Positions 1 to 15,246 of a stretch of DNA of 64,000 bases are shown piece by piece. This DNA is from a virus. The position numbers and the translations under genes are program-made. The notes beneath the pieces are model-generated. The model had not been told where the DNA came from, made no database searches, and was given only the letters and a program-made list of their open reading frames with translations. Each line of letters starts with the position of its first letter. Within the stretch, counting starts at the first letter, position 1. The DNA is taken from IMG/VR virus record IMGVR_UViG_3300032053_005343, positions 1-64,000 of that record; one strand, written 5' to 3'.

Positions 1-20
1 ATGATGCAATACTCAAATTC

Positions 21-221
21 ATGTATAATCTGGGCCTGTCTCTGTCTCAAATGTCGGAGATATTGGGCGTAGATTCAACAACAATATCGAAAAGATTCAC
101 CCTGATTGACTTCCCCACGAGAATTCTTTGTCAAGCCAAGGGTGTTAGGTACACAAAAGAAGAGTTTAAAAGATTTTTTATGAACGACAGATTTAAAGAA
201 CTTATAAGGGAAAGAGAATAG
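21..221 (+). CDS. HTH DNA-binding protein; probably the 3' part of a gene starting before the window
   Basis: HTH-like LSLSQMSEILGVDSTTISKR; the frame is open back to the window start. Confidence 0.55.
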   Translation: MYNLGLSLSQMSEILGVDSTTISKRFTLIDFPTRILCQAKGVRYTKEEFKRFFMNDRFKELIRERE

Positions 222-223
222 AT

Positions 224-1201
224 ATGGCTACATATTACGTAAGTAACGCAACTGGCCTCGACACAGACTCTGGATTGACGGAGGCTCTTGCTTGGAAAAC
301 CGTGGACAAAGCCATGAATACGGTAGCGGCTGGCGACAAGGTTTGGGTCAAGGCCGACGGGAACTACGCCGAGCTTGTTACGATAGACACCGCAGGGACA
401 AATTTGAATCCCATTATATTTGAGGGTTATACTTCTGTTACCGGAGATCTTGGAATTGCCACAATAACGGGCTCAAGCAGTAGGGCAAATTGCATTACTA
501 CTGGTATCACTACCAATGCCTATTATATTTTTAAGAATTTTCGCTTTACTGCTTCAACAAGTTGTTGTGCCAACCTCGTTATTCCGCATTATGTATTTGA
601 TAATTGTCAGTTTGATAGTGCGACTGGAGATGGTGGTTGTAGTTGTGATTTTGCAATTTTTATAAATTGTAAATTTAATGATAATACCGGAGATGGATGC
701 AATACAGGAAATTTAAGTAGAACCGCATATTTTATAAAATGTCAATTTTATCGTAATAGTTTAAATGGTCTTAATAATGCGGCTGGCGGATGTGTCGCGT
801 TGTTTTGTAAATTCTTTTCCAATGGTAGCGACAATATATCTAGTGGCGGTTCTAATGATCAAGCGTTAGTTGTTGCTAATTGTACTATAGATGGAGATAG
901 CAAGGATTCTAATAATGGTATCCATTCAGTCGGTATAGGTTCAATTAGATCTATTATAGTTTTAGTAAATAGTATTATATATGATTGCGCAATTGGAGTA
1001 GGGATAGATCACGACAGGGGTAAATATCAAGTTTCTAAAAATAATTTAATAAATTCAAATACAACTGATTATTCAAGTTTTTTGGCTGGTGATAACGAAC
1101 TTACATCTGCTCCAGGGTTTACTAACGAGGTCGGAGGAGCAGATTATACCCCCGCTGCTGGAAGTCCATTAATTAATGCTGGATTTGATGGAGGTAGTTA
1201 G
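224..1201 (+). CDS. Right-handed parallel beta-helix (pectin-lyase-like) virion adhesin/depolymerase
   Basis: N-terminal TYYVS..G.D..SGL...AWKT...A.....AGD.V.VK motif; repeated (F)xNCxF rungs; C-terminal DYTPAAGSPLINAG. Confidence 0.75.
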   Translation: MATYYVSNATGLDTDSGLTEALAWKTVDKAMNTVAAGDKVWVKADGNYAELVTIDTAGTNLNPIIFEGYTSVTGDLGIATITGSSSRANCITTGITTNAYYIFKNFRFTASTSCCANLVIPHYVFDNCQFDSATGDGGCSCDFAIFINCKFNDNTGDGCNTGNLSRTAYFIKCQFYRNSLNGLNNAAGGCVALFCKFFSNGSDNISSGGSNDQALVVANCTIDGDSKDSNNGIHSVGIGSIRSIIVLVNSIIYDCAIGVGIDHDRGKYQVSKNNLINSNTTDYSSFLAGDNELTSAPGFTNEVGGADYTPAAGSPLINAGFDGGS

Positions 1202-1226
1202 AATTTTTTATTAAAAGGAGAATTAA

Positions 1227-1838
1227 ATGGCAGACCAAAAAATTAGTGCGTTGCCAGCGGTTGTAGCGGCATCCGGAACAGATGAAATTCATACTAATGA
1301 ATCTGGTGTGTCAAAAAAGGTTACGGTTGCACAAATAGCGGCTTTTATTGGAAGTAGTCCTATTACTATTAAAGCTTTAGCATCCAATCTATTGTTGGGT
1401 GGTTCAACCGTGGAAAAGGTTACGGGTTTAGATCAGGTTGTTGGGGTTGGGACATGGATTTTCAACTACTATATACGGTATAGATCGTCAACAGCTACTA
1501 CGGGAATGAAGTTTGCAGTAAATCATTCCGGCACTGTTACATCTTTCGTGGCTAATAGTCGGTGGGTAGGAGTTTCATCTTCAGATGCTACTGGCAATGC
1601 AACGCAGGATGGGGGAAATTTTGTAGTAACTTCAAGAGCCGCCCGTGCTATTAGTACTTCCGAGTGGGGTGGAACAAATAATGTAGACACAACAGACGCG
1701 GATATGCTAATGATCATCGAGGGATTAATGGTTGTTACTGTATCGGGCGATATTCAATTATATGCCGGAAATGAAATAAACAGTTCACACGTTACGGTTA
1801 TGGCAAATAGTTCTCTTATTCTAACGAAGATTGCATAA
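1227..1838 (+). CDS. Virion fibre/spike protein with MADQKISAL-type N-terminus
   Basis: AAAGGAG RBS; N-terminus typical of phage fibre proteins; beta-rich C-terminal domain. Confidence 0.55.
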   Translation: MADQKISALPAVVAASGTDEIHTNESGVSKKVTVAQIAAFIGSSPITIKALASNLLLGGSTVEKVTGLDQVVGVGTWIFNYYIRYRSSTATTGMKFAVNHSGTVTSFVANSRWVGVSSSDATGNATQDGGNFVVTSRAARAISTSEWGGTNNVDTTDADMLMIIEGLMVVTVSGDIQLYAGNEINSSHVTVMANSSLILTKIA

Positions 1839-1840
1839 TA

Positions 1841-2647
1841 ATGTCTAGTAGAATTCTTTTAGAAAATAGTAGTATTGATGGAGAACTTCTAGAAAACGGA
1901 AGTGGAGTTATACTTCTTGAATCGTTAAATTTATTTATCCGTGCAAATAATGCAGACATCGGTGCAATACAAGTTCCAGGGATGGATATAGGGGCTGTTC
2001 AATCGACGGCTGCTGTCGCAGTAGCTTTTAGTGGAAATTTAGATTTATTCATTCATGGGTTTTCCTCGCAAACCGATAATATTAATTTAATAATTACGGG
2101 ATATGAATCTTTTAGCCAATCATTGGATCTTTTTATAAACGGAAGTATTCAAACAACAGATAACTTGGATTTAACGATTACTGGGTATGACACAAATAAT
2201 GATAGTATAATCTTGTTTGTGAATGGGGCGGATTCGGAAAACAACAATCTTGATTTATTCGTAAACGGATTTGAAACTGATAATAATGCCATAGAATTGT
2301 TTATAAACGGTAAAGAATTACAAGACAATAATTTAGATTTATTTATCAGCGGACACATTACAGAAATAGATAATTTAAATCTTTTTATACATGGCAGAGA
2401 TTCTATTACAGATAGTATTGATTTAATAATAACGGGCGAGGAAGCAAACAATCAATCTCTTAATCTCTTTATCTTAGGTTTTGATACAAGTTCTAATAAT
2501 ATAGATTTGTTTATGGATGGGGATATTTTCCCGGAAGAAGGTGATGTTCGATATGGTGTAACATATAATTATGGTTCGCAAACTGGAGTTCTTGTGCTTC
2601 CGGAAGAGGGCGATGTGCGTTTTAATGTTGGTTATGGTGTGTTATAA
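1841..2647 (+). CDS. Repeat scaffold protein: N-terminal LLExG motifs and two DIGAxQ motifs, ~12 14-aa LDLFIxG repeats, C-terminal PxExDVRxGVxYG repeats
   Basis: Repeats read directly from the translation. Confidence 0.6.
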   Translation: MSSRILLENSSIDGELLENGSGVILLESLNLFIRANNADIGAIQVPGMDIGAVQSTAAVAVAFSGNLDLFIHGFSSQTDNINLIITGYESFSQSLDLFINGSIQTTDNLDLTITGYDTNNDSIILFVNGADSENNNLDLFVNGFETDNNAIELFINGKELQDNNLDLFISGHITEIDNLNLFIHGRDSITDSIDLIITGEEANNQSLNLFILGFDTSSNNIDLFMDGDIFPEEGDVRYGVTYNYGSQTGVLVLPEEGDVRFNVGYGVL

Positions 2648-2672
2648 TATTTTTTAAAAAGGAGAAGAGAGT

Positions 2673-3050
2673 ATGTCAGAATTTACAGGTACGTTTGTGG
2701 TTCCATCAGATGATGATGTGGAGTTTGGTGTTGGTTATGGAGAGAGTGGGACGGAGTTTACGGGAACCGTAACTCTTCCTGCATCGGGTAATGTTGCTGT
2801 CGGTGTTCAGTATGGTGCCGATGGAACTGAATTTACCGGAACAGAACCAACTGATTTTCCATCGAATTATGATGTTAGAGATGGTGTTACCTATCAAGGC
2901 GCATCGGAAACAGGTAATTTAACACTTCCATCTGTTGGAGATGTTGAGGCGGCTGTTGATTTCGGAGGTAGTGGAACACAGTATACAGGAACGTTCGTTG
3001 TACCTGCGGAGGGTGATGTTCGATCTGGTGTAGCGTTTGGTGCTCCGTAA
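2673..3050 (+). CDS. Small 25-aa-repeat protein (EFTG..P...DV..GV.YG)
   Basis: AAAGGAG RBS; ~5 repeats; starts MSEFTG and ends FGAP. Confidence 0.7.
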   Translation: MSEFTGTFVVPSDDDVEFGVGYGESGTEFTGTVTLPASGNVAVGVQYGADGTEFTGTEPTDFPSNYDVRDGVTYQGASETGNLTLPSVGDVEAAVDFGGSGTQYTGTFVVPAEGDVRSGVAFGAP

Positions 3051-3132
3051 TAGGAAGTTGTTTTATATATAAAAAAGGGGATCTAATTATAATAAAAGAT
3101 TTTAATATCCCTCCTTTGATTGGACAATTATA

Positions 3133-3348
3133 ATGCCATTAACATTTCCTAGTGAATACGATGTACGATCAGGAGTACAATTTGGTCCAACTACTGGTAC
3201 AGAATTTACCGGGAACTTTATACCACCATCAACTGGGGATGTGGAAAGTGGTGTTCAATTTGGCGGAAGTGGAAATGAATTCACGGGGGTGTTTATCGTT
3301 CCGTCTCCAGATGATGTTAGAGATGGCGTAGGATTTGGTGCTCCGTAG
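3133..3348 (+). CDS. Small 25-aa-repeat protein
   Basis: ~3 repeats; ends FGAP like the 2673 ORF. Confidence 0.65.
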   Translation: MPLTFPSEYDVRSGVQFGPTTGTEFTGNFIPPSTGDVESGVQFGGSGNEFTGVFIVPSPDDVRDGVGFGAP

Positions 3349-3357
3349 GAGTTTATA

Positions 3358-3540
3358 ATGTCAGAATTTAATGGTATAATTATACTACCGTCAGAGAACG
3401 ATGTTGAGGCGGGTATTATGTATGGAACTAGTGGCATTGAATTTACCGGAAATATGATTCCCCCAAGTTCATCTCAAGTAATAGATGGAGTTGAATTTGG
3501 TGGTAGTGGAACAGAATTTACTGGAACTTTTACTTGTTAA
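3358..3540 (+). CDS. Small 25-aa-repeat protein
   Basis: AGGAG RBS; starts MSEFNG and ends EFTGTFTC. Confidence 0.65.
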   Translation: MSEFNGIIILPSENDVEAGIMYGTSGIEFTGNMIPPSSSQVIDGVEFGGSGTEFTGTFTC

Positions 3541-3551
3541 AAAGATAAAAT

Positions 3552-4127
3552 ATGTCTGAATTTACAGGAAATATGGTTATCCCTTCTCCTTATGATGTCA
3601 GAGATGGGACACTAGTGGACGAAGGTTCTGGTAATTTTACTCTTCCTTTAATCGAACAAGTAGTTGATGGAGTTGGATTTGGTACAAGTGGGACCGAATT
3701 TTTAGGAACTTTTGTTTGTCCAGGATCGGGACAATTAACGGATAATATCAATTTATTTATTCGTGGAAATATATCTGGAACCCCATCGGTTGGAGATGAT
3801 AATTTTGGAATAGAATTAGATCAATTGTTCAAAAATGGTGATTTTAATCCACAAATTATTGGTAGATTTACAACTAATCCTTCGAGCGTGACAATAGAGG
3901 TGTGGGATGCGATAAATAATAATTCTATAGTTTCTTTATCAAGTGTTGACTGTTATGAAATAGGGAACACCGATCGGTGGGCTTTCTCTACCATTAATTT
4001 ACCACCGCTTACAAGAAGAGTGAATCAATATGTGTTTAAAATGACGGCGAATACAGCGGAAGTGTTCGAAGGAGAGTTTATATTAAAAACTAAAAAAGTG
4101 GGTAAAGAAAGAAAAAGGAGAAGGTAA
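3552..4127 (+). CDS. 25-aa repeats + one LDLFIxG-type repeat + C-terminal beta-sandwich-like anchor domain
   Basis: Starts MSEFTG; contains DNINLFIRG; C-terminal domain aligns by eye with 4129..4458. Confidence 0.6.
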   Translation: MSEFTGNMVIPSPYDVRDGTLVDEGSGNFTLPLIEQVVDGVGFGTSGTEFLGTFVCPGSGQLTDNINLFIRGNISGTPSVGDDNFGIELDQLFKNGDFNPQIIGRFTTNPSSVTIEVWDAINNNSIVSLSSVDCYEIGNTDRWAFSTINLPPLTRRVNQYVFKMTANTAEVFEGEFILKTKKVGKERKRRR

Positions 4128-4128
4128 T

Positions 4129-4458
4129 ATGGCTCTTGTGGAATATGAATATTCATTATTAGAACCGATTTCAATTATTGGAGATTTTACTACTGGCGAG
4201 ACAGTGAATATTGAATTGTGGCAAGACGGAATCTTACAAACTATCACCTCCAGTGGATGTACCGAGATTGATGAGACGGGAAAATTTGGCTGGTCAACTG
4301 GAAATATCGCCGTATTGACCGCGAGTAAGGTTCAATATCACTGGAAAATGCAAGATGGTTCTAGTAATTCTGTTGAGGGAGACTTTGTTTTACAATCGGT
4401 AGAAGGAGAAGATGGTGGATTCCCAAGAGATAAGGATAGTTATATTTTAAGGATTTAA
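4129..4458 (+). CDS. Stand-alone paralog of the C-terminal domain of 3552..4127; probable virion protein
   Basis: Shared IIG.FTT...V.IE.W, C.EI..T....ST.N, QY..KM and EG.F.L motifs. Confidence 0.6.
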   Translation: MALVEYEYSLLEPISIIGDFTTGETVNIELWQDGILQTITSSGCTEIDETGKFGWSTGNIAVLTASKVQYHWKMQDGSSNSVEGDFVLQSVEGEDGGFPRDKDSYILRI

Positions 4459-4462
4459 AACG

Positions 4463-4969
4463 ATGGAAACTTGGAGAAATGTACGTGGATATGAAAATAT
4501 CTACCAAATATCGAATAAAACTTTTGTCAAAAATATAAAAACTGGTAAAATTTTGAAGCAAAGACTTACCCATAATGGATATCTGTATGTTAGGTTGTCT
4601 AAGAATGGATTGGGAACGATTAAAAATATTCATGTTTTGATGCTAGAAGCATTTATTGGTCCGAGACCAATTAATTGTGTTTGTAGACATTTGGATGGCA
4701 ATAAATTAAATAATAATATCAATAATTTGCGATGGGGAACAAGATCTGAAAATGCACAAGATTCTATTAAACATGGAACTTTTCATATTCCAGACAACAG
4801 AGGATCTAAATGTGAAACCTCTAAATTGAACGACTTACAAGTAAGTATAATTAAAAAATTATTAAAAGATAACTATTTGACACATAAAGAAATAGCAATA
4901 ATATTTGGCGTTAGTGCTCGTAATATTAGGGATATCAAAAATGATAAAATATGGAGACATATAAAATGA
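4463..4969 (+). CDS. NUMOD4-HNH-HTH homing endonuclease
   Basis: ETWRNVRGYENIYQISN (NUMOD4); CRHLDGNKLNN..NNLRWGT.SEN (HNH); C-terminal HTH. Confidence 0.9.
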   Translation: METWRNVRGYENIYQISNKTFVKNIKTGKILKQRLTHNGYLYVRLSKNGLGTIKNIHVLMLEAFIGPRPINCVCRHLDGNKLNNNINNLRWGTRSENAQDSIKHGTFHIPDNRGSKCETSKLNDLQVSIIKKLLKDNYLTHKEIAIIFGVSARNIRDIKNDKIWRHIK

Positions 4970-5502
4970 GTTGGGACGTAGACTTGGTAACTATATTGAG
5001 AGTATTGATCGGCGATTTAAATTTGCCACAAAAGAACACTGACATCTATCTCAAGAAAATTTTAATTACGGCAGGAGTTCTTGTTTCTAATGAAATAGAT
5101 TTAAGTAATAATTATGTGTTTGATATTACTGGCGTTACCATTGTCCCAGATCCGATAATATTGGGGGATATTCAAGTTCAGGCATTGTTGCCACTAAAAG
5201 CAAGTTGTCTTTTAAATCAATCTGATTTTAGAATAGCTTTGTCTCAAGGAGTAAGTATACGCGACGGAGATACCCAAATTACAACGTCTGTGAGTTTCGC
5301 AGGCTACGCCGACATCCTCAAATTAGGCCCATGTAAATCCTACGAATTATTAATTAATAAATTAACCGCCGCCTCAAGTTCATTGGTCGGTGGCGCTGTT
5401 TTGGGCGCATATCGTGGTCCTAGTGATAGTGCTATTTCTACTGTCGCGTGGTTCTACGATCAACTTGCATTACCAATTGAGAGAGTAAATAGAAGATATT
5501 AA
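4966..5502 (+). CDS. Putative head-tail adaptor (likely start MSWDVD at 4966)
   Basis: LRVLIGD N-terminal motif; first gene of the neck block; ATGA overlap with the HNH stop. Confidence 0.5.
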   Translation: MSWDVDLVTILRVLIGDLNLPQKNTDIYLKKILITAGVLVSNEIDLSNNYVFDITGVTIVPDPIILGDIQVQALLPLKASCLLNQSDFRIALSQGVSIRDGDTQITTSVSFAGYADILKLGPCKSYELLINKLTAASSSLVGGAVLGAYRGPSDSAISTVAWFYDQLALPIERVNRRY

Positions 5503-5511
5503 ACGTGTTTA

Positions 5512-6102
5512 ATGGCAATACTAACAAATAATTTAAATTTAAACATACGTGGATCACAACCAGCCCCAGAAATTTCTTGTCCCGCTCTTGATCCCAATGC
5601 CTCGATACAAATAAGCGATGACCTTATACAAATTTATCAGTCTCGCATAGATGCTTTAATTAATCAACTAGGAAAGAATGTCTATTTGATATTTGATCCT
5701 ATTATAGAACCATGTACAAATTGTACTTTTGACGTTGTAGGAAATAGATCAACAGGAATTTATAAGATTGGTGGACCTGTTTCCTTCTCTCGCGGACAAA
5801 AGTGTCCATATTGTAAATCTGTTGGCTTCCTTGAAAGAGAAAATGCTAAATGTATTAAAGCGTTAATTAAATGGGCTCCTGTAGAAATGAAAAATTTTGG
5901 AATTTCTGTTCAAAAAACCGAGGGAGTAGTTCGTTTGAAAACTTTCCTAACAGACGTGCCAGATCTTGTGCGATGTAAATACGCCATAGTTAACCACGAC
6001 ATAGAGGAAATTTTGAAACTTCGAGTGAGATTGATTCAGGGACCGATTCCTGTGGGGCTTCGGGAAGATCGTTACTCGATAAGTTTTTGGGAGACGCTCT
6101 AG
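5512..6102 (+). CDS. Putative head-closure/neck protein with Zn finger (short paralog)
   Basis: CxxC...CPYC; follows the adaptor; highly similar to the last ~185 aa of 9078..13646. Confidence 0.55.
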   Translation: MAILTNNLNLNIRGSQPAPEISCPALDPNASIQISDDLIQIYQSRIDALINQLGKNVYLIFDPIIEPCTNCTFDVVGNRSTGIYKIGGPVSFSRGQKCPYCKSVGFLERENAKCIKALIKWAPVEMKNFGISVQKTEGVVRLKTFLTDVPDLVRCKYAIVNHDIEEILKLRVRLIQGPIPVGLREDRYSISFWETL

Positions 6103-6969
6103 ATGGAGAATTTAGTTGGACAAAAATTTAATAGATTAACACCAATTGAATATGTTGGCAGAACAAAAAGGGGGGTTCCTAAATGGCTTTGTTTGTGTGA
6201 TTGTGGCAATAAAACAATAGTAACAAGTGGTCATTTAAAGAATGGTCATTCCAAAAGTTGCGGATGTTTTAAAAATGAAAAAACAATACAAAGAAATAAA
6301 GCAAATGCGGGATTAAATAAAAATTGCTGGACAAAAGACGAAATGGAATTTTTAAAAATTAATTATCCGTTTCATGGCACAAGATTTTGTATGAAGAATC
6401 TTAATAGGACGAAAAGGGCTATAAGTTCAACGGCATCGAAACTGGGTTTAAAAACCGCAATAGCTTCTCAAGGAGTGCCTCAAAAAAATATAATTAAAAA
6501 AATATCGAACAGCAAGGTTTTAAGTTTGTGCCAAATTCATGGAGAAACAATACATTATTGTAGAAAAAATAAAATAATTTATTGTTTGAAGTGTCGTCAC
6601 AAAAATCCTGTTAATAATTTTGCTTCAAGAATAAGAAGTTTAATTAGACATGCTTTTAAGAAAATCTCGATTAATCATAGTTATATTCCAAGAGGGGGAT
6701 TTCGTAACTTGGATTATAGTCCAATAGAATTATATAACTATCTCGAAAATACTAGAGAACTACAAAATAATAAGTGTCCACATTGTTATACCTCTTACGA
6801 TAAATGTGAAATGAATATAGAACACGTTATTCCTCTCGCAACAGCCAAGACCGAGCAACAAGTTATAGATTTATTTTGTTTACAAAATTTGAATTTAATG
6901 TGCAAATCATGCAACTCATCAAAAAGTGACACAGATTATAAAATTTGGATGGAGAATAAATGTGTATAA
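6103..6969 (+). CDS. HNH endonuclease (CxCDCG N-terminus, C-terminal HNH); paralog of 14338..15246
   Basis: WLCLCDCG..KSCGC; CPHC...EHVIPL...NLNLMCKSCNSSK. Confidence 0.85.
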   Translation: MENLVGQKFNRLTPIEYVGRTKRGVPKWLCLCDCGNKTIVTSGHLKNGHSKSCGCFKNEKTIQRNKANAGLNKNCWTKDEMEFLKINYPFHGTRFCMKNLNRTKRAISSTASKLGLKTAIASQGVPQKNIIKKISNSKVLSLCQIHGETIHYCRKNKIIYCLKCRHKNPVNNFASRIRSLIRHAFKKISINHSYIPRGGFRNLDYSPIELYNYLENTRELQNNKCPHCYTSYDKCEMNIEHVIPLATAKTEQQVIDLFCLQNLNLMCKSCNSSKSDTDYKIWMENKCV

Positions 6970-6980
6970 GTATATGGAGA
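6961..6980 (+). promoter_or_regulatory. Candidate late-promoter motif TGTGTATAA
   Basis: Similar motif at 19496, 21952, 24298, 42206, 43898 and 45501, mostly upstream of structural genes. Confidence 0.5.
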
Positions 6981-6984
6981 TTAT

Positions 6985-7410
6985 ATGATAGAAGAAATAA
7001 AATTAAAAGCTAATGTACATATTATACTTCGTGGTCCTGATGGTAATATCAAACATGAAAGTGTTCATAATACCGTTACAACTGCCGGAAAAAATGGAAT
7101 AGCGGATCAAATTTTAGCATCTCCAACTTTAGGCAAACCAACACATATGGCAGTTGGAACAGGGTCTCCTTCGGCAACTGCTTTGGGGACAGAACTAGAT
7201 AGAAATGCCAATACTTCGAAAACAAGAAGTGATGCTGTTGTTACTATTATTGGAGATTGGGCTGCGGGAGATGGGACTGGAACATTAACTGAAGCTGGTA
7301 TATTTGACGCTTCGTCTAACGGTAATATGTGGATGTCTGCATCTTTTTCTGCTCTTGTTAAAGGTGCTGCGGATACTCTTCAAATTACCTGGACTCTTAC
7401 TGTGAGTTAA
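6985..7410 (+). CDS. Fibre-attachment/baseplate-type beta domain protein
   Basis: N.VTTAG...IA..I, AVGTG, T.L..ELDR and TEAGIF motifs, typical of phage fibre N-terminal/collar domains. Confidence 0.55.
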   Translation: MIEEIKLKANVHIILRGPDGNIKHESVHNTVTTAGKNGIADQILASPTLGKPTHMAVGTGSPSATALGTELDRNANTSKTRSDAVVTIIGDWAAGDGTGTLTEAGIFDASSNGNMWMSASFSALVKGAADTLQITWTLTVS

Positions 7411-7413
7411 TAA

Positions 7414-7935
7414 ATGGCCACTCGTTTATATTTAAGTGCCGCCGCTGAAACGGTTCCTATTTCTCCTGCCCCAGATTCGGGGTGGGAAGACATATCTATT
7501 TTAGCAAGATGTTTGTGTGGAACTTCAAAACGTGGATTAGCAATGACTACAGTTTCTTTCTCGGATGCAAACTATGCCAATAAAGATATACTATTTAGGC
7601 AATATATATCCCCCCCGCTTGTCCCTGGTGTATTACTTACTTTTCCTGGCGGCGATGAAGCCGTACCCATATATGCTTCTTGTAGAGTACTTGAATCAGG
7701 ATCAAGTAATAATATGTTTTTTACACTTGGGATTAGAATAATCGCAAGCAATGGAACGACCGTTAGAAGAACACTTTTAAATGTAAAAAGAGATTATCTT
7801 GAAGCGAGCGATACTCTTTTTCAGAGTAGAGCTATTAATGATGCCGATGGTGTTTTTTGTAGTACTGGTTCTTATACAACCCAAGCTGGTGATCGTTTGG
7901 TTATTGAGATAGGTATGGGGGGTGATCCTGTCTAA
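7414..7935 (+). CDS. Virion protein, N-terminal part (possibly split from 7935..8174)
   Basis: Ends abruptly GDRLVIEIGMGGDPV*; TAATG overlap with the next ORF. Confidence 0.5.
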   Translation: MATRLYLSAAAETVPISPAPDSGWEDISILARCLCGTSKRGLAMTTVSFSDANYANKDILFRQYISPPLVPGVLLTFPGGDEAVPIYASCRVLESGSSNNMFFTLGIRIIASNGTTVRRTLLNVKRDYLEASDTLFQSRAINDADGVFCSTGSYTTQAGDRLVIEIGMGGDPV

Positions 7936-8174
7936 TGGCTGGTTCTCATTCATCAGATATGCGACTGGGTGATGCTAGTGCAACTGATCTAGCCTTTAAT
8001 GATGTTACAACTACGGATAATAGTCCGTGGGTAGAAATAGGCATTGATATAGGATTAGTTCTTACACTGTCTTTATCTGATACTGTTACTATTACCGATA
8101 ATTCTAGTCGAGTTCTTGGGGGTCAAAGCCAAGCCCCTCGTTCGATGCATCAATTTCGTCAAAGGAGAATTTAA
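7935..8174 (+). CDS. Virion protein, C-terminal part, with basic C-terminal tail
   Basis: LGDASATDL..DNSPWVEI; LSLSDTVTITD; ends PRSMHQFRQRRI. Confidence 0.45.
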   Translation: MAGSHSSDMRLGDASATDLAFNDVTTTDNSPWVEIGIDIGLVLTLSLSDTVTITDNSSRVLGGQSQAPRSMHQFRQRRI

Positions 8175-12000: not shown

Positions 12001-13646
12001 ATGGAAAGGGTTCGTCAACAAACAATGTTGATCTTTTTATTATAGGCAATGGGACAAAAATTAACACCGTTGATTTATTCATTTCTGGAATATCAGAACA
12101 AATAATATTTAATTCGATAGATCTTGTTCTTGTTGGAAAAGATGCCGAGAATAATAGCATAGATTTATATATTGAAGGGCTTGACACAAAAAATCAGAGT
12201 TTAGATCTTTTCATAAATGGAAGTATTCAAACAGCTAATAACATAGATCTGTTTATAACGGGGAACAATAATAAACAGCAGAAATTGGATTTATTTATAC
12301 GCGGGAGTGAAACAAATACACAAGCATTAAATCTCTTTATCGAAGGCAAGGATACAAGAACTAATAATATCGAATTATTTATTAAAGGAAAAGATGCCGA
12401 ATTTAAACAAATAGATTTAACAATAACAGGGAAAGATAGCGAGACAGAATCAATAGATCTTTTCCTGTCCGGTAAAAATACAGAAAATCAAAATCTAGAC
12501 TTATTTATAGGTGGATTTAATACAAATACAAACAATTTAGATCTTTTTGTTCATGGCAAAAATGTTGTAAATAATAATTTAACATTATTTATTATAAACA
12601 TAAATTCATCATCTAATTCTATTGATCTGTTTATCTCTGGACCAATCTCTACAAATAATAATCTTAACCTATTTATACAAGGCAAAGATCAAAATAACAA
12701 TAATATTGAACTATTTATAAATGGTTCGAATGCTTCTAATGAAAACATTGATTTGTTTATAGACGGGTTCGATTCCCAGACAAACAATTTAGATTTAATA
12801 ATAATTGGTAAAGATACAAAGTCTCAGGAATTAAGTTTATTTGTTCGCGGGAGTGAAACAAATACCGAAACCATAGATCTTTTTCTGTCTGGCAAAGAAT
12901 CTATCACAGACATTGCCGACTTTTTTATAAAAGGATTCGATACAAATTCTAATGCTTTAAATTTATTTATCCACGGCTCCAATTTTGTTGATAATGATTT
13001 AACTCTATTCATTTCTGGTCCAATTTTAATAAATGGAAATATTGATTTATTCTTAAAGGTTTTAGAAGCAAGGCCATTAGATTTATTTATAGAAGGACGA
13101 GTACAACCACCAATTGTTTCGTGTCCAATATTAGACCCAGAAGCATCTATTCAAATAAGTGATGAATTAATAGGAATTTATCAGTCGAGAATTGATGCTC
13201 TTATTAATCAATTAGGAAAGAATGTTTTATTAGAATTTGATCCGATAATAGAACCTTGCACAAATTGTTTCCAAAATATAATAGAACATAGATCGAACGG
13301 CATTTACAAGCCTGGAGGACCGATTCCCTTCGACAGAGGCCAAAAGTGCCCATATTGTAAATCTATTGGTTTTCTTGAAAGATCGGTAAATAGGTGTATT
13401 AAATCGTTAGTGCAATGGAATGGGCGTGACAATGAAAGTTACAAGATTAGCGTTCAACATGGAGGCGGGATTGTCAGATTAAAGTCGTTTTTATCGGATG
13501 GACCTTATTTGATCAAAGCTAAAAGCTGTGTCACCAATTACGATACATCTAATATTTTTAAATTGAGGGTAAAAATAATAAAGGGACCAATTATTTTAGG
13601 GTTGCGAAATGAGAGATATTTGACAACTTACTGGAAAATGATTTAA
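9078..13646 (+). CDS. 1522-aa neck-anchored fibre/scaffold: YWTD-type beta-propeller + ~70 14-aa repeats + head-closure-like Zn-finger domain
   Basis: Blades LYFAD/IYWIN/MYWTD/IYWTN/VYWGQ/LYWSD with RANLDG-like motifs; LDLFIxG repeats; C-terminus paralogous to 5512..6102. Confidence 0.7.
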   Translation: MAIGFKGILDFIGYPVGTPSLSINNNLNLSICGHDSIIYNESKLYFADDASDRMWRSNLDGTNILLIASGSPVIDDPSRSINANIFTDKIYWINTDDILQIRRANIDGSNYEILVSGSDTSNGDGLKIIPSKNLMYWTDTSDNKVSKSDLLGNNIAVIYDSSGIYQPDAIDYDPIEEKIYWTNTFSFGSLSYNITRFNLDGSDVEIILSNPEFIPGLFDSAPVSIAIDYIIRKVYWGQEPLDTSLPCIFRANLDGTNIETIIPSGFHSIESLSIDFLNRKLYWSDRTVVGKILRSNMDGSNIETLSISPPLGNEIVPLTIYQRPYMNLSINGKDTINNSCDLFIKFVESIDSNINLFIKGKDSQNQNLDLFINGFDTETQNLDLIIVGNEISTNDIDLFVDGKVSDNENLDLFIGGKEAESNDLDLFVHGKDSKTNNLDLIVSGRNTQDENIDLIITGNESKNNNIDLFIHGQNTVNENINLFVEGKETSTNSLNLFIYGRDTNTDNLDLIITGYESSNKSLDLFIRGFETETQNLDLFIIGHNNFNNNINLFIDGKDSETRGLDLFIRGKDNQTEQIDLFIKGLETNNQTIDLFLSGKDTESQNLDLFINGLGVNSNNIDLFVQGKETQFDSLDLFIQGKDSETNSLDLIISGKNTQNESIDLIITGSESKNNNLDLIIIGEQANTSVLDLFIHGFDFANNNIDLFINGKNTQSNNLNLFISGKETQTNSLDLFISGKDSSTNNIDLFINGKASNNENLELFIHAHDFVDTNIDLFIGGKEAESNDLNFFIRGKNTQTQSINLFIPGEDSQSQSLDLFIKGFEANNKNIDLIIFGKNIESQELNLFVHGNETKIANTDLFLSGKDFVANIFDLFIKGFETNSDSVDLFISGKDSENPFLNLFISGKDSKNNDINLFISGKNNQNNSCNLYISGKDTENKNLDLVVFGFEINSENIDLSIRGKDIRTESLDLFIYGKGSSTNNVDLFIIGNGTKINTVDLFISGISEQIIFNSIDLVLVGKDAENNSIDLYIEGLDTKNQSLDLFINGSIQTANNIDLFITGNNNKQQKLDLFIRGSETNTQALNLFIEGKDTRTNNIELFIKGKDAEFKQIDLTITGKDSETESIDLFLSGKNTENQNLDLFIGGFNTNTNNLDLFVHGKNVVNNNLTLFIININSSSNSIDLFISGPISTNNNLNLFIQGKDQNNNNIELFINGSNASNENIDLFIDGFDSQTNNLDLIIIGKDTKSQELSLFVRGSETNTETIDLFLSGKESITDIADFFIKGFDTNSNALNLFIHGSNFVDNDLTLFISGPILINGNIDLFLKVLEARPLDLFIEGRVQPPIVSCPILDPEASIQISDELIGIYQSRIDALINQLGKNVLLEFDPIIEPCTNCFQNIIEHRSNGIYKPGGPIPFDRGQKCPYCKSIGFLERSVNRCIKSLVQWNGRDNESYKISVQHGGGIVRLKSFLSDGPYLIKAKSCVTNYDTSNIFKLRVKIIKGPIILGLRNERYLTTYWKMI
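10053..13100 (+). repeat. Coding tandem repeat, 42-nt/14-aa period, ~70 degenerate copies
   Basis: xx(L/I)(D/N)LF(I/V)xGxxxxx throughout; DNA core GATYTNTTYAT recurring about every 42 nt. Confidence 0.9.
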
Positions 13647-14337: not shown

Positions 14338-15246
14338 ATGAATAGGTTTATAGATTTAAGGGGGCAAAGATTTGGAAGGCTTTTGGTGCTGTTGTATGTT
14401 GGAAACACCATGCTGAGATCAGCCAAATGGCTTTGTAAATGCGACTGCGGTAATGAGAAAATAATTAATGGATACTCACTTAGAAATGGAGATACAAAAA
14501 GTTGCGGATGTTTGCAGAAAGAAAAACTTGTGCAAAGAACTAAGATTAATGCCAAATTTAGAAAAGGATGTTGGCAGAAAAAAGAAGATGATATTTTAAA
14601 ACAGTTTTATCCAGATAATGGTCCTGAATATTGTTTCAAATTATTAGACAGAACAAAAAAGGCGGTAATGGGCAGAGTAAGAAAACTTGATTTAAAAGTT
14701 AAATATGCTTTTAATACTGGTTTACCAAAAAAAATCATAATTAAAAAATTGTCGAACAATAGAGTTATTTCTAGATGTGAAACGCACGGAGAAACTGAGC
14801 ACTACTATTATAACAACAAAAAGATAGCGTCTTGTATGCAATGTAAACGTCTTAATAGTAACAAATGGAGAAAACTTCCAATTAATAATTTTGCAGAAAA
14901 TTTAAGATCTTTAATTAAACATGCTTTTAAAAAAATTCACAATAAAAATGGTAAACTTATACAGGGTCGTTGCTTTAAAAATCTTGATTATACTCCAATA
15001 CAACTATACAATTATCTTAACAATATTCAAAATTTACAAAATAATAAATGTCCATATTGTGATGTCTCTTATGATAAATGTAAAATAAGCATAGATCATG
15101 TAATCCCACTTTCAACAGCTAAAACAACACAAGAAGTTATAGATTTGTTTGATTTAAAAAATCTCAATCTTATGTGCAAAAATTGTAATTCACAAAAATG
15201 GAAACATGATTATAGTCTCTGGAGTAAAACTCATGTCATTAAATAA
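14338..15246 (+). CDS. HNH endonuclease; paralog of 6103..6969
   Basis: DLRGQRFGRL..WLCKCDCG..KSCGC; CPYC..DHVIPL..NLNLMCKNCNSQK. Confidence 0.85.
   Translation: MNRFIDLRGQRFGRLLVLLYVGNTMLRSAKWLCKCDCGNEKIINGYSLRNGDTKSCGCLQKEKLVQRTKINAKFRKGCWQKKEDDILKQFYPDNGPEYCFKLLDRTKKAVMGRVRKLDLKVKYAFNTGLPKKIIIKKLSNNRVISRCETHGETEHYYYNNKKIASCMQCKRLNSNKWRKLPINNFAENLRSLIKHAFKKIHNKNGKLIQGRCFKNLDYTPIQLYNYLNNIQNLQNNKCPYCDVSYDKCKISIDHVIPLSTAKTTQEVIDLFDLKNLNLMCKNCNSQKWKHDYSLWSKTHVIK

Follow-up and report, generated by a model that had tools for sequence, protein, structure and literature searches.

Five consecutive plus-strand open reading frames (ORFs) at the start of a phage genome probably encode the parts of a single virion fibre shaft, that of a neck or collar fibre, and the boundaries between them fall inside a 25-amino-acid (aa) repeat at one fixed phase. 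The genes lie at positions 1841-4127 of the first 64 kb (the window) of a 137-kb metagenome-assembled phage record, IMG/VR IMGVR_UViG_3300032053_005343. They are under selection, the phase of their junctions is conserved, and the repeat is otherwise unsplit. We propose that a single gene junction was copied along one shaft and that the resulting segments dock end to end, the terminal β-hairpin of one being completed in trans by the next. We give this whole chain of events a probability of roughly 40%.

The repeat can be written (EF)TG.h.hP...DV..GV.[YF]G..GT or, in the other phasing, P...DV..GV.[YF]G..GTEFTG. Fourteen distinct units (16 overlapping matches of a regular expression for the repeat core) are present within positions 2531-3700, and the same expression found one chance match in the six-frame translation of the rest of the window. 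Tandem Repeats Finder run on positions 1700-4300 reported an 8-nucleotide (nt) array only; the 25-aa repeat is invisible in the DNA and is therefore a protein-level feature. All five ORFs matched one another in a search of the genome against itself. They are as follows.

1841-2647, plus strand: ORF1841, 268 aa; DIGA.Q motifs, about 12 LDLFI.G repeats and two repeat units (2519-2644), ending GYGVL-stop.
2673-3050, plus strand: ORF2673, 125 aa, repeat only; five units, starting MSEFTG and ending AFGAP-stop, then a second stop.
3133-3348, plus strand: ORF3133, 71 aa; three units, starting MPLTFPSEYDV (family-typical phase) and ending GFGAP-stop; a paralogue of ORF2673 units 3-5.
3358-3540, plus strand: ORF3358, 60 aa; two units, starting MSEFNG and ending GTEFTGTFTC-stop (family-typical phase).
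3552-4127, plus strand: ORF3552, 191 aa; MSEFTG start, two units, a single NINLFIRG motif and, at the C terminus, a domain of about 90 aa.

ORFs 1841, 2673 and 3133 all stop two residues past the [YF]G of a unit, and ORFs 2673, 3358 and 3552 start at its EFTG or EFNG. The units and termini as read confirm an earlier note on this DNA, which held that five neighbouring ORFs break one repeat in phase, three stopping just past GV.(Y/F)G and three starting at EFTG. The two remaining termini, the start of ORF3133 and the end of ORF3358, are in the other phase, which is that of array starts and ends in nearly every other member of the family. ORF2673 has five units, as have ORF3133 and ORF3358 combined (3 + 2).

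The repeat is common. A phmmer search of 1.84 billion representatives with ORF2673 as the query yielded 765 at E ≤ 1e-3 and 51 at E ≤ 1e-30, these family members being representatives of clusters at 50% identity, with 150 of the 765 among the matches listed. Many of the matched proteins are 500-2000 aa long and have up to about 20 units. No model for the repeat was found in Pfam or PHROGs with the window ORFs and 10 representatives. The best single-sequence match in the PDB had an E-value of 0.27, and a profile gave 0 PDB matches at E ≤ 10. The Atlas search returned only 'hypothetical protein' clusters, and a full-text literature search for the motif GTEFTG returned nothing. So common a repeat, with neither a Pfam model nor a solved structure, is a good target for curation and structure determination. 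Arrays are fused to β-helix heads (P0139, P0091, L012, and L013), to a head-tail adaptor (P0080) and to a head closure protein (P0020), and stand-alone array proteins of 80-132 aa with 2-3 units occur in many phages. The fusion partners point to neck or collar fibres. One 817-aa protein (P0100) combines the repeat with a Pfam Lcl_C domain (E = 7e-16); the repeat may also occur in cellular surface proteins, or P0100 may be a prophage fusion.

Nearly all family arrays begin with [YF]P...DV and end after GTEFTGT, often followed by GGGG. At least two units were present in 160 of the 163 proteins examined. Fifty-two end 5-40 aa after the last core, and in 45 of these 52 that tail contains the motif of the putative second strand of the hairpin. 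Only five end 4 aa or fewer after the core, among them P0084 and P0091 (both ...FGAP) and P0139 (...VVYG); the end of P0139 is uncertain, as this protein may be truncated. The window ORFs thus resemble the family in sequence and depart from its habit of carrying the array in one polypeptide with typical start and end phases. Outside the window the atypical phase was seen only in L017, P0084, and P0091.

We looked for further splits in 66 loci plus the window, comprising about 60 independent contigs (same-contig pairs included), 70 array-bearing segments and 236 units; here and in the protein count above, L008, 15 of the 20 'junctions', P0044, and P0137 were set aside by eye as regular-expression noise. 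Among these 67 sources, genuine stops just past the core were confined to three in the window and one in L017, and interrupted arrays to the four window junctions and one in L017. In L017 the upstream protein (P0084) ends ...DVRQGVTFGAP and is followed by TAA, 2 nt (ca) and ATG-VIGTLDLPSIEYV. The downstream protein begins mid-repeat with MVIGTLDLP (pattern M.IGTL.LP) and continues with three more units and a Cys-rich domain. In length the junction equals an internal unit of the L017 protein itself (YS-EGD-MIGT-LNLP), and it corresponds to an insertion of 5 nt ahead of a Met codon that was already there. Synteny with the window (anchor domain, E = 1e-11; ORF15206, E = 2e-23; ORF19562, E = 2e-47) marks L017 as a distant member of the phage group to which the window belongs. 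Over the last 252 aa, P0136 and the L017 protein ORF2726 (2726-3502) are 92% identical. They share the mid-repeat start, with three more units in P0136; unit number therefore changes fast while the start phase is kept. The pattern MSEFTG.h..P retrieved only the close relative from IMG/VR, searches of viral contigs did not recover P0091 or P0139, and P0117 had only a 45% relative there. From these comparisons, the split is rare, old and fixed in phase, and it characterizes a small lineage in a repeat family that is large and otherwise unsplit. The only other split relative found breaks at the phase seen in the window, in agreement with the earlier note; the random variation in split points that the note had set beforehand as refuting was not seen.

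Judged from their conservation, the five ORFs are real genes and are probably translated separately. A relative from another metagenome (L003; 93-99% protein identity) shares all five, stops and starts included, and a third relative, P0163, is 87% identical to the 71-aa ORF3133 and equal to it in length and ends. The ratios of non-synonymous to synonymous substitution rates (dN/dS, Nei-Gojobori) relative to L003 were 0.08 for ORF2673, 0.26 for ORF3133 and 0.18 for ORF3358. Pooled, these three ORFs show 18 synonymous and 12 non-synonymous changes, which corresponds to a ratio of the respective proportions (pN/pS) of 0.22 (binomial p = 3.7e-5). The spacers show indels and more substitutions than the coding sequence. 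The paralogous ORFs, although only 61-70% identical in DNA, are all still open. A pseudogene or decaying gene was rejected, as the earlier note had argued, because the stops lie in one phase, each with an ATG after it, because pN/pS is 0.22, and because L003 and P0163 retain the ORFs. A blastn search with positions 1-8000 of the window found no match among deposited phages.

Logan contigs from four other sediment samples (runs X2-X5) carry TAG in place of TAA at the stop at 2647 in four of four runs; no change at the other stops or starts is among the differences listed, 21 further ones being unlisted, and none of these contigs bridges the ORF2673 stop by a 31-letter rule. The notion of one long gene with stops introduced by faulty sequencing or assembly draws on the origin of the window in a metagenome assembly. 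We assign it next to no probability, since the same stops recur in L003, in P0163 and, among the differences listed, in four further samples, and since an ATG follows each stop, two with a strong ribosome-binding site.

The contigs of L003 and of the four other samples diverge abruptly from the window upstream of about 2505, at the border between the LDLFI.G and the 25-aa repeats, and again at about 3742-3766, at the NINLFIRG motif and an indel of ORF3552. In sequence terms, these points look like mosaic recombination breakpoints at repeat boundaries. The LDLFI.G repeat, a 14-15-aa unit (NLDLFI.G.....D) with about 12 copies in ORF1841 (within 1841-2520), had no Pfam match above threshold; ORF3552 has the single copy NINLFIRG. 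The breakpoints at 2505 and about 3742-3766 in the four samples, the ease with which unit number changes (three units between P0136 and L017 ORF2726) and the weak ribosome-binding sites at ORFs 3133 and 3552 would suit the idea that ORFs 2673, 3133, and 3358 are by-products of unequal recombination that the phage tolerates and that do little or nothing, ORFs 1841 and 3552 alone being of consequence. The pooled pN/pS of 0.22, paralogues that remain open at 61-70% DNA identity, ORF boundaries common to three relatives and spacers that evolve faster than the ORFs make that idea improbable.

The spacers are, in order, 25, 82, 9, and 11 nt long. Three of them bear on how the ORFs are translated.

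2648-2672, plus strand: 25-nt spacer; five substitutions and a 1-nt deletion in the comparison with L003, the same deletion being found in runs X2 and X3.
3051-3132, plus strand: 82-nt spacer; begins TAGGAAGTT, resembling TAGGAGTTT after ORF3133.
3349-3357, plus strand: 9-nt spacer; the TAG stop overlaps an AGGAG, ORFs 3133 and 3358 share a frame, and L003 has an identical spacer.

AGGAG stands 8 nt before the ATG of ORF2673 and 6 nt before that of ORF3358, which upholds the claim of clear ribosome-binding sites for at least two ORFs; no clear Shine-Dalgarno sequence precedes ORF3133 or ORF3552. The spacers had also been described as unrelated. Most of them are, except that the flanks after the ORF2673 and ORF3133 stops have CCGTA(A)TAGGA[AG] in common. 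The 82-nt spacer differs from that of L003 by an 8-nt indel and several substitutions, and scans found promoter-like and terminator-like sites in it at the level of shuffled background.

The frame relations bear on whether the ORFs are joined in translation into one long fibre protein, by read-through of the TAG at 3346-3348 and by frameshifting or hopping elsewhere. ORFs 3133 and 3358 are indeed in one frame, separated by TAG and 9 nt, with an identical junction in L003, where the homologues of ORFs 1841 and 2673 are also in one frame with a TAG stop. However, the 3133/3358 junction is the only one in frame in the window. The 1841/2673 spacer, 25 nt long in the window, has 24 nt in L003, X2, and X3, and the frame relation of these two ORFs is therefore not conserved; a double stop (TAA TAG) closes ORF2673, with 82 nt of non-repeat sequence behind it; and the L017 ORFs, 2 nt apart, are in different frames. 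Under table 11, long ORFs (900-1550 aa) are intact and show no sign of stop-codon reassignment, which was rejected as an explanation on that ground. Joining in translation is accordingly highly improbable.

The pieces map onto one another in a way that suggests how the junctions multiplied. ORF3133 is identical to the last three units of ORF2673, FGAP end included, at 40 of 70 positions, and ORF3358 to the first two, MSEF start included, at 29 of 54; ORF3358 is also a paralogue of the N terminus of ORF3552. In the own-genome search ORF3133 mapped to residues 53-125 of ORF2673, ORF3358 to residues 1-57 and the tail of ORF1841 to residues 61-98. The last two units of ORF1841 match units 3-4 of ORF2673 and also the end of P0139 (59% identity over 37 aa). 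Because ORF2673 begins like a downstream partner and ends like an upstream partner, we take the in-phase breaks to be copies of one ancestral junction made by unequal recombination, which the sequence relationships make fairly likely. A reading of the breaks as independent events was not sustained: ORF2673 is a 3358-like head with a 3133-like tail.

The ancestral state would have been one ancient junction inside the repeat, of the form ...GV.FGAP-stop, a short coupled spacer and M..(EF)TG.... Unequal recombination between the units flanking it would then have copied it in the window lineage and produced repeat-only 'middle' genes, namely ORF2673 and the pair ORF3133 and ORF3358. Copying of a single junction would place all breaks in one phase, and paralogues only 61-70% identical in DNA would make the copies old. 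Two other origins were rejected: insertion of homing endonucleases, as no such gene lies between the repeat ORFs, and inversion or shufflon cassettes, as the ORFs are all on one strand (inverted repeats were sought only by reading the sequence).

Structure prediction gave a mixed picture of how the segments might assemble. AlphaFold 2 modelled ORF2673 with a mean predicted local distance difference test score (pLDDT) of 48.5 without an alignment and of 61.7 with a 27-row alignment, the latter with a predicted template modelling score (pTM) of 0.27. The model is an extended chain with no globular fold and with local bridges between YG and EF. Such a low-confidence extended chain is as expected for a fibre that would fold only as an oligomer. 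A complex of three copies of ORF3133 and three of ORF3358 was modelled with ESMFold2 in one design, with alignments. The alignments for the structure models were built from 25, 31, and 32 of 36 chosen stretches, near-duplicates and stretches with long non-repeat inserts being dropped by eye. The complex gave interface scores (ipSAE) of 0.76, 0.75, and 0.74 against 0.00 for the best control, with a contact overlap between runs of at least 82% and a partner pLDDT of at least 79. The passing mark is attained in 58 of the 80 solved complexes and in 2 of the 110 mismatched pairs, counts that hold approximately here, where our own alignments and a 3+3 design were used. The model supports association of the chains via the conserved P, DV, and aromatic positions.

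In the assembly that we propose, each segment would oligomerize in parallel and in register through the repeat, and the oligomerized segments would then dock end to end. The preceding segment would stop right after the first strand of its last hairpin, and the N-terminal EFTG strand of the following segment would act as the second strand. The earlier note had proposed such head-to-tail complementation of half-repeats, and this proposal fared unevenly: the odd termini are exact complements by phase, as donor-strand completion would have it, whereas the single 3+3 model packs the chains laterally, with the C-terminal unit of ORF3133 outside the interface. Geometrical support is thus weak, and the one model points against docking. 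We nevertheless tentatively favour end-to-end docking over lateral or independent assembly, at less than even odds, because arrays of the family normally end in a complete hairpin and because the odd termini complement each other exactly.

Several observations weigh against this proposal. The hairpin picture depends on the low-confidence AlphaFold 2 model (pLDDT 61.7, pTM 0.27). In the 3+3 geometry the chains lie beside each other in register (3133 V11 with 3358 V16, V37 with V41, and P with aromatic positions), and the last unit of ORF3133 (residues 57-71), where the junction is expected, lies outside the confident interface. The chains being homologous repeats, the high score may reflect only a generic tendency to bundle. 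The ends of ORF2673 would be self-complementary, so that polymerization without limit would be possible. The recombination scenario rests on identities of 50-57% between short repeats, and the selection estimate on one genome pair and 30 substitutions. The last residue is variable, GAP in the window and GAQ in L003. Finally, the length preservation at the L017 junction is weak evidence, since loop lengths naturally vary between two and four residues and a minimal mutation is itself length-preserving.

The same model favours assembly without any end-to-end joining, in which the ORFs would form short homo-oligomeric fibres of their own or lateral, collagen-like hetero-oligomers, their shared termini being a legacy of duplication. 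The chains of the 3+3 model are parallel, in register and side by side (ipSAE 0.75 against 0.00 for the control), the five units of ORF2673 equal the sum of those of ORFs 3133 and 3358, and stand-alone proteins of 80-132 aa with 2-3 units are known in many phages. Those stand-alone proteins, however, have family-typical ends with complete hairpins, and the ...FGAP end is kept in a distant syntenic lineage with a mid-repeat start directly after it; models also tend to bundle six homologous repeat chains whatever the truth. We regard assembly without joining as somewhat unlikely.

If docking by a trans-completed hairpin is correct, it would be a simple natural rule for the non-covalent modular extension of a β-structured fibre, with a bearing on the evolution of host-range organelles and on phage fibre engineering. 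A more general and rather doubtful extension is that ...GV.FGAP-COOH and NH2-MSEFTG form a universal self-complementary connector, by which any head-bearing protein could dock any tail-bearing one while recombination adds, removes or swaps segments. Fibre length and composition would then be tuned by donor-strand-like 'building bricks', and ORF2673 could polymerize.

Three neighbouring genes carry domains that are linked to the repeat array in relatives or in the window.

224-1201, plus strand: 325-aa β-helix-like fibre head gene (PHROG 'virion structural protein', E = 4e-7).
4129-4458, plus strand: ORF4129, 109 aa; paralogue of the C-terminal domain (about 90 aa) of ORF3552 (35% identity, E = 2e-12).
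5512-6102, plus strand: ORF5512, a 196-aa protein of the Cys-rich 'anchor' domain (BLASTP E = 1e-14 against L017 ORF2726).

The N terminus of the β-helix-like protein resembles P0139 (E = 2e-6), which combines a weak Pfam Beta_helix match (E = 0.003) with DIGAAQH and arrays; in relatives a β-helix-type domain and a repeat array are found in one chain. The window gene ends ...SPLINAGFDGGS, and the DIGA.Q motif that comes next in fused relatives (...VPDIGAAQH in P0139) opens ORF1841. In L003 (4596-6120) the next ORF starts MGMEIGAVQ 4 nt after the β-helix gene, and the window has an extra 203-aa gene (1227-1838) between the β-helix gene and ORF1841. With this arrangement, the fibre protein appears to have been split a second time here.

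By eye, the C-terminal portion of ORF3552 resembles the N-terminal domain of fibre genes beside repeat proteins in L005, L006, L007, and L017. The earlier note would have the joined pieces serve as a possibly combinatorial linker between an adhesin scaffold and an anchor domain; the anchor-type domain is fused directly behind the array in L017 and is a separate gene (ORF5512) in the window. A tblastn search with this Cys-rich domain (CxxC ... CPYC) also matched 13221-13643, the C terminus of a 1522-aa ORF, so that the window has it both stand-alone and at that C terminus; L017 has, within 2726-4024, a fused copy and a second, stand-alone one. Three HNH endonuclease genes lie in the structural block (4463-4969, 6103-6969, and 14338-15246), none of them between the repeat ORFs.

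Multi-protein phage fibres are known, but we have not found fixed-phase gene boundaries inside a repeat, multiplied into mini-genes, described; literature searches limited to listings and abstracts gave nothing on intra-repeat fibre splits or on the 25-aa repeat. The nearest sequence relatives, at 40-60% identity and in fibre or neck contexts, are the unsplit repeat proteins (P0014, L004, L005, P0080, and others). They differ in having the array in one polypeptide, with a [YF]P...DV start and an end after GTEFTGT, often followed by GGGG.

In the T4 long tail fibre, gp34, gp35, gp36, and gp37 are joined end to end. The window would resemble it in having separately encoded polypeptides joined non-covalently in series, and does so in having adjacent, co-oriented genes. 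It differs in that its segments all consist of one repeat, with the boundary inside the unit at a fixed phase, and in that the junction appears to have been multiplied, which left repeat-only segments 60-125 aa long. The Pfam, PHROGs and PDB comparisons of the window ORFs showed no homology to T4 fibre proteins.

Split genes whose halves reassemble occur in T4-like phages (see PMC2988022); genes interrupted by free-standing homing endonuclease genes are examples. As in such split genes, an ancestral protein would be represented in the window by adjacent ORFs whose products must associate, and the window genome is rich in HNH genes. Unlike those genes, the window ORFs are separated by spacers of 9-82 nt without an endonuclease gene, and the L017 junction is a 5-nt insertion before an existing ATG.

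The mechanism that we propose has its closest counterpart in pili. Chaperone-usher pili are non-covalent linear polymers built by donor-strand complementation and exchange, in which an N-terminal strand comes from the next subunit. The window differs in having no Ig-like pilin fold, chaperone, usher or homology to these systems, and the model did not reproduce strand donation. The likeness, which in the window follows from the phase of the repeat, would be that a subunit short of one β-strand receives it from the N terminus of the next.

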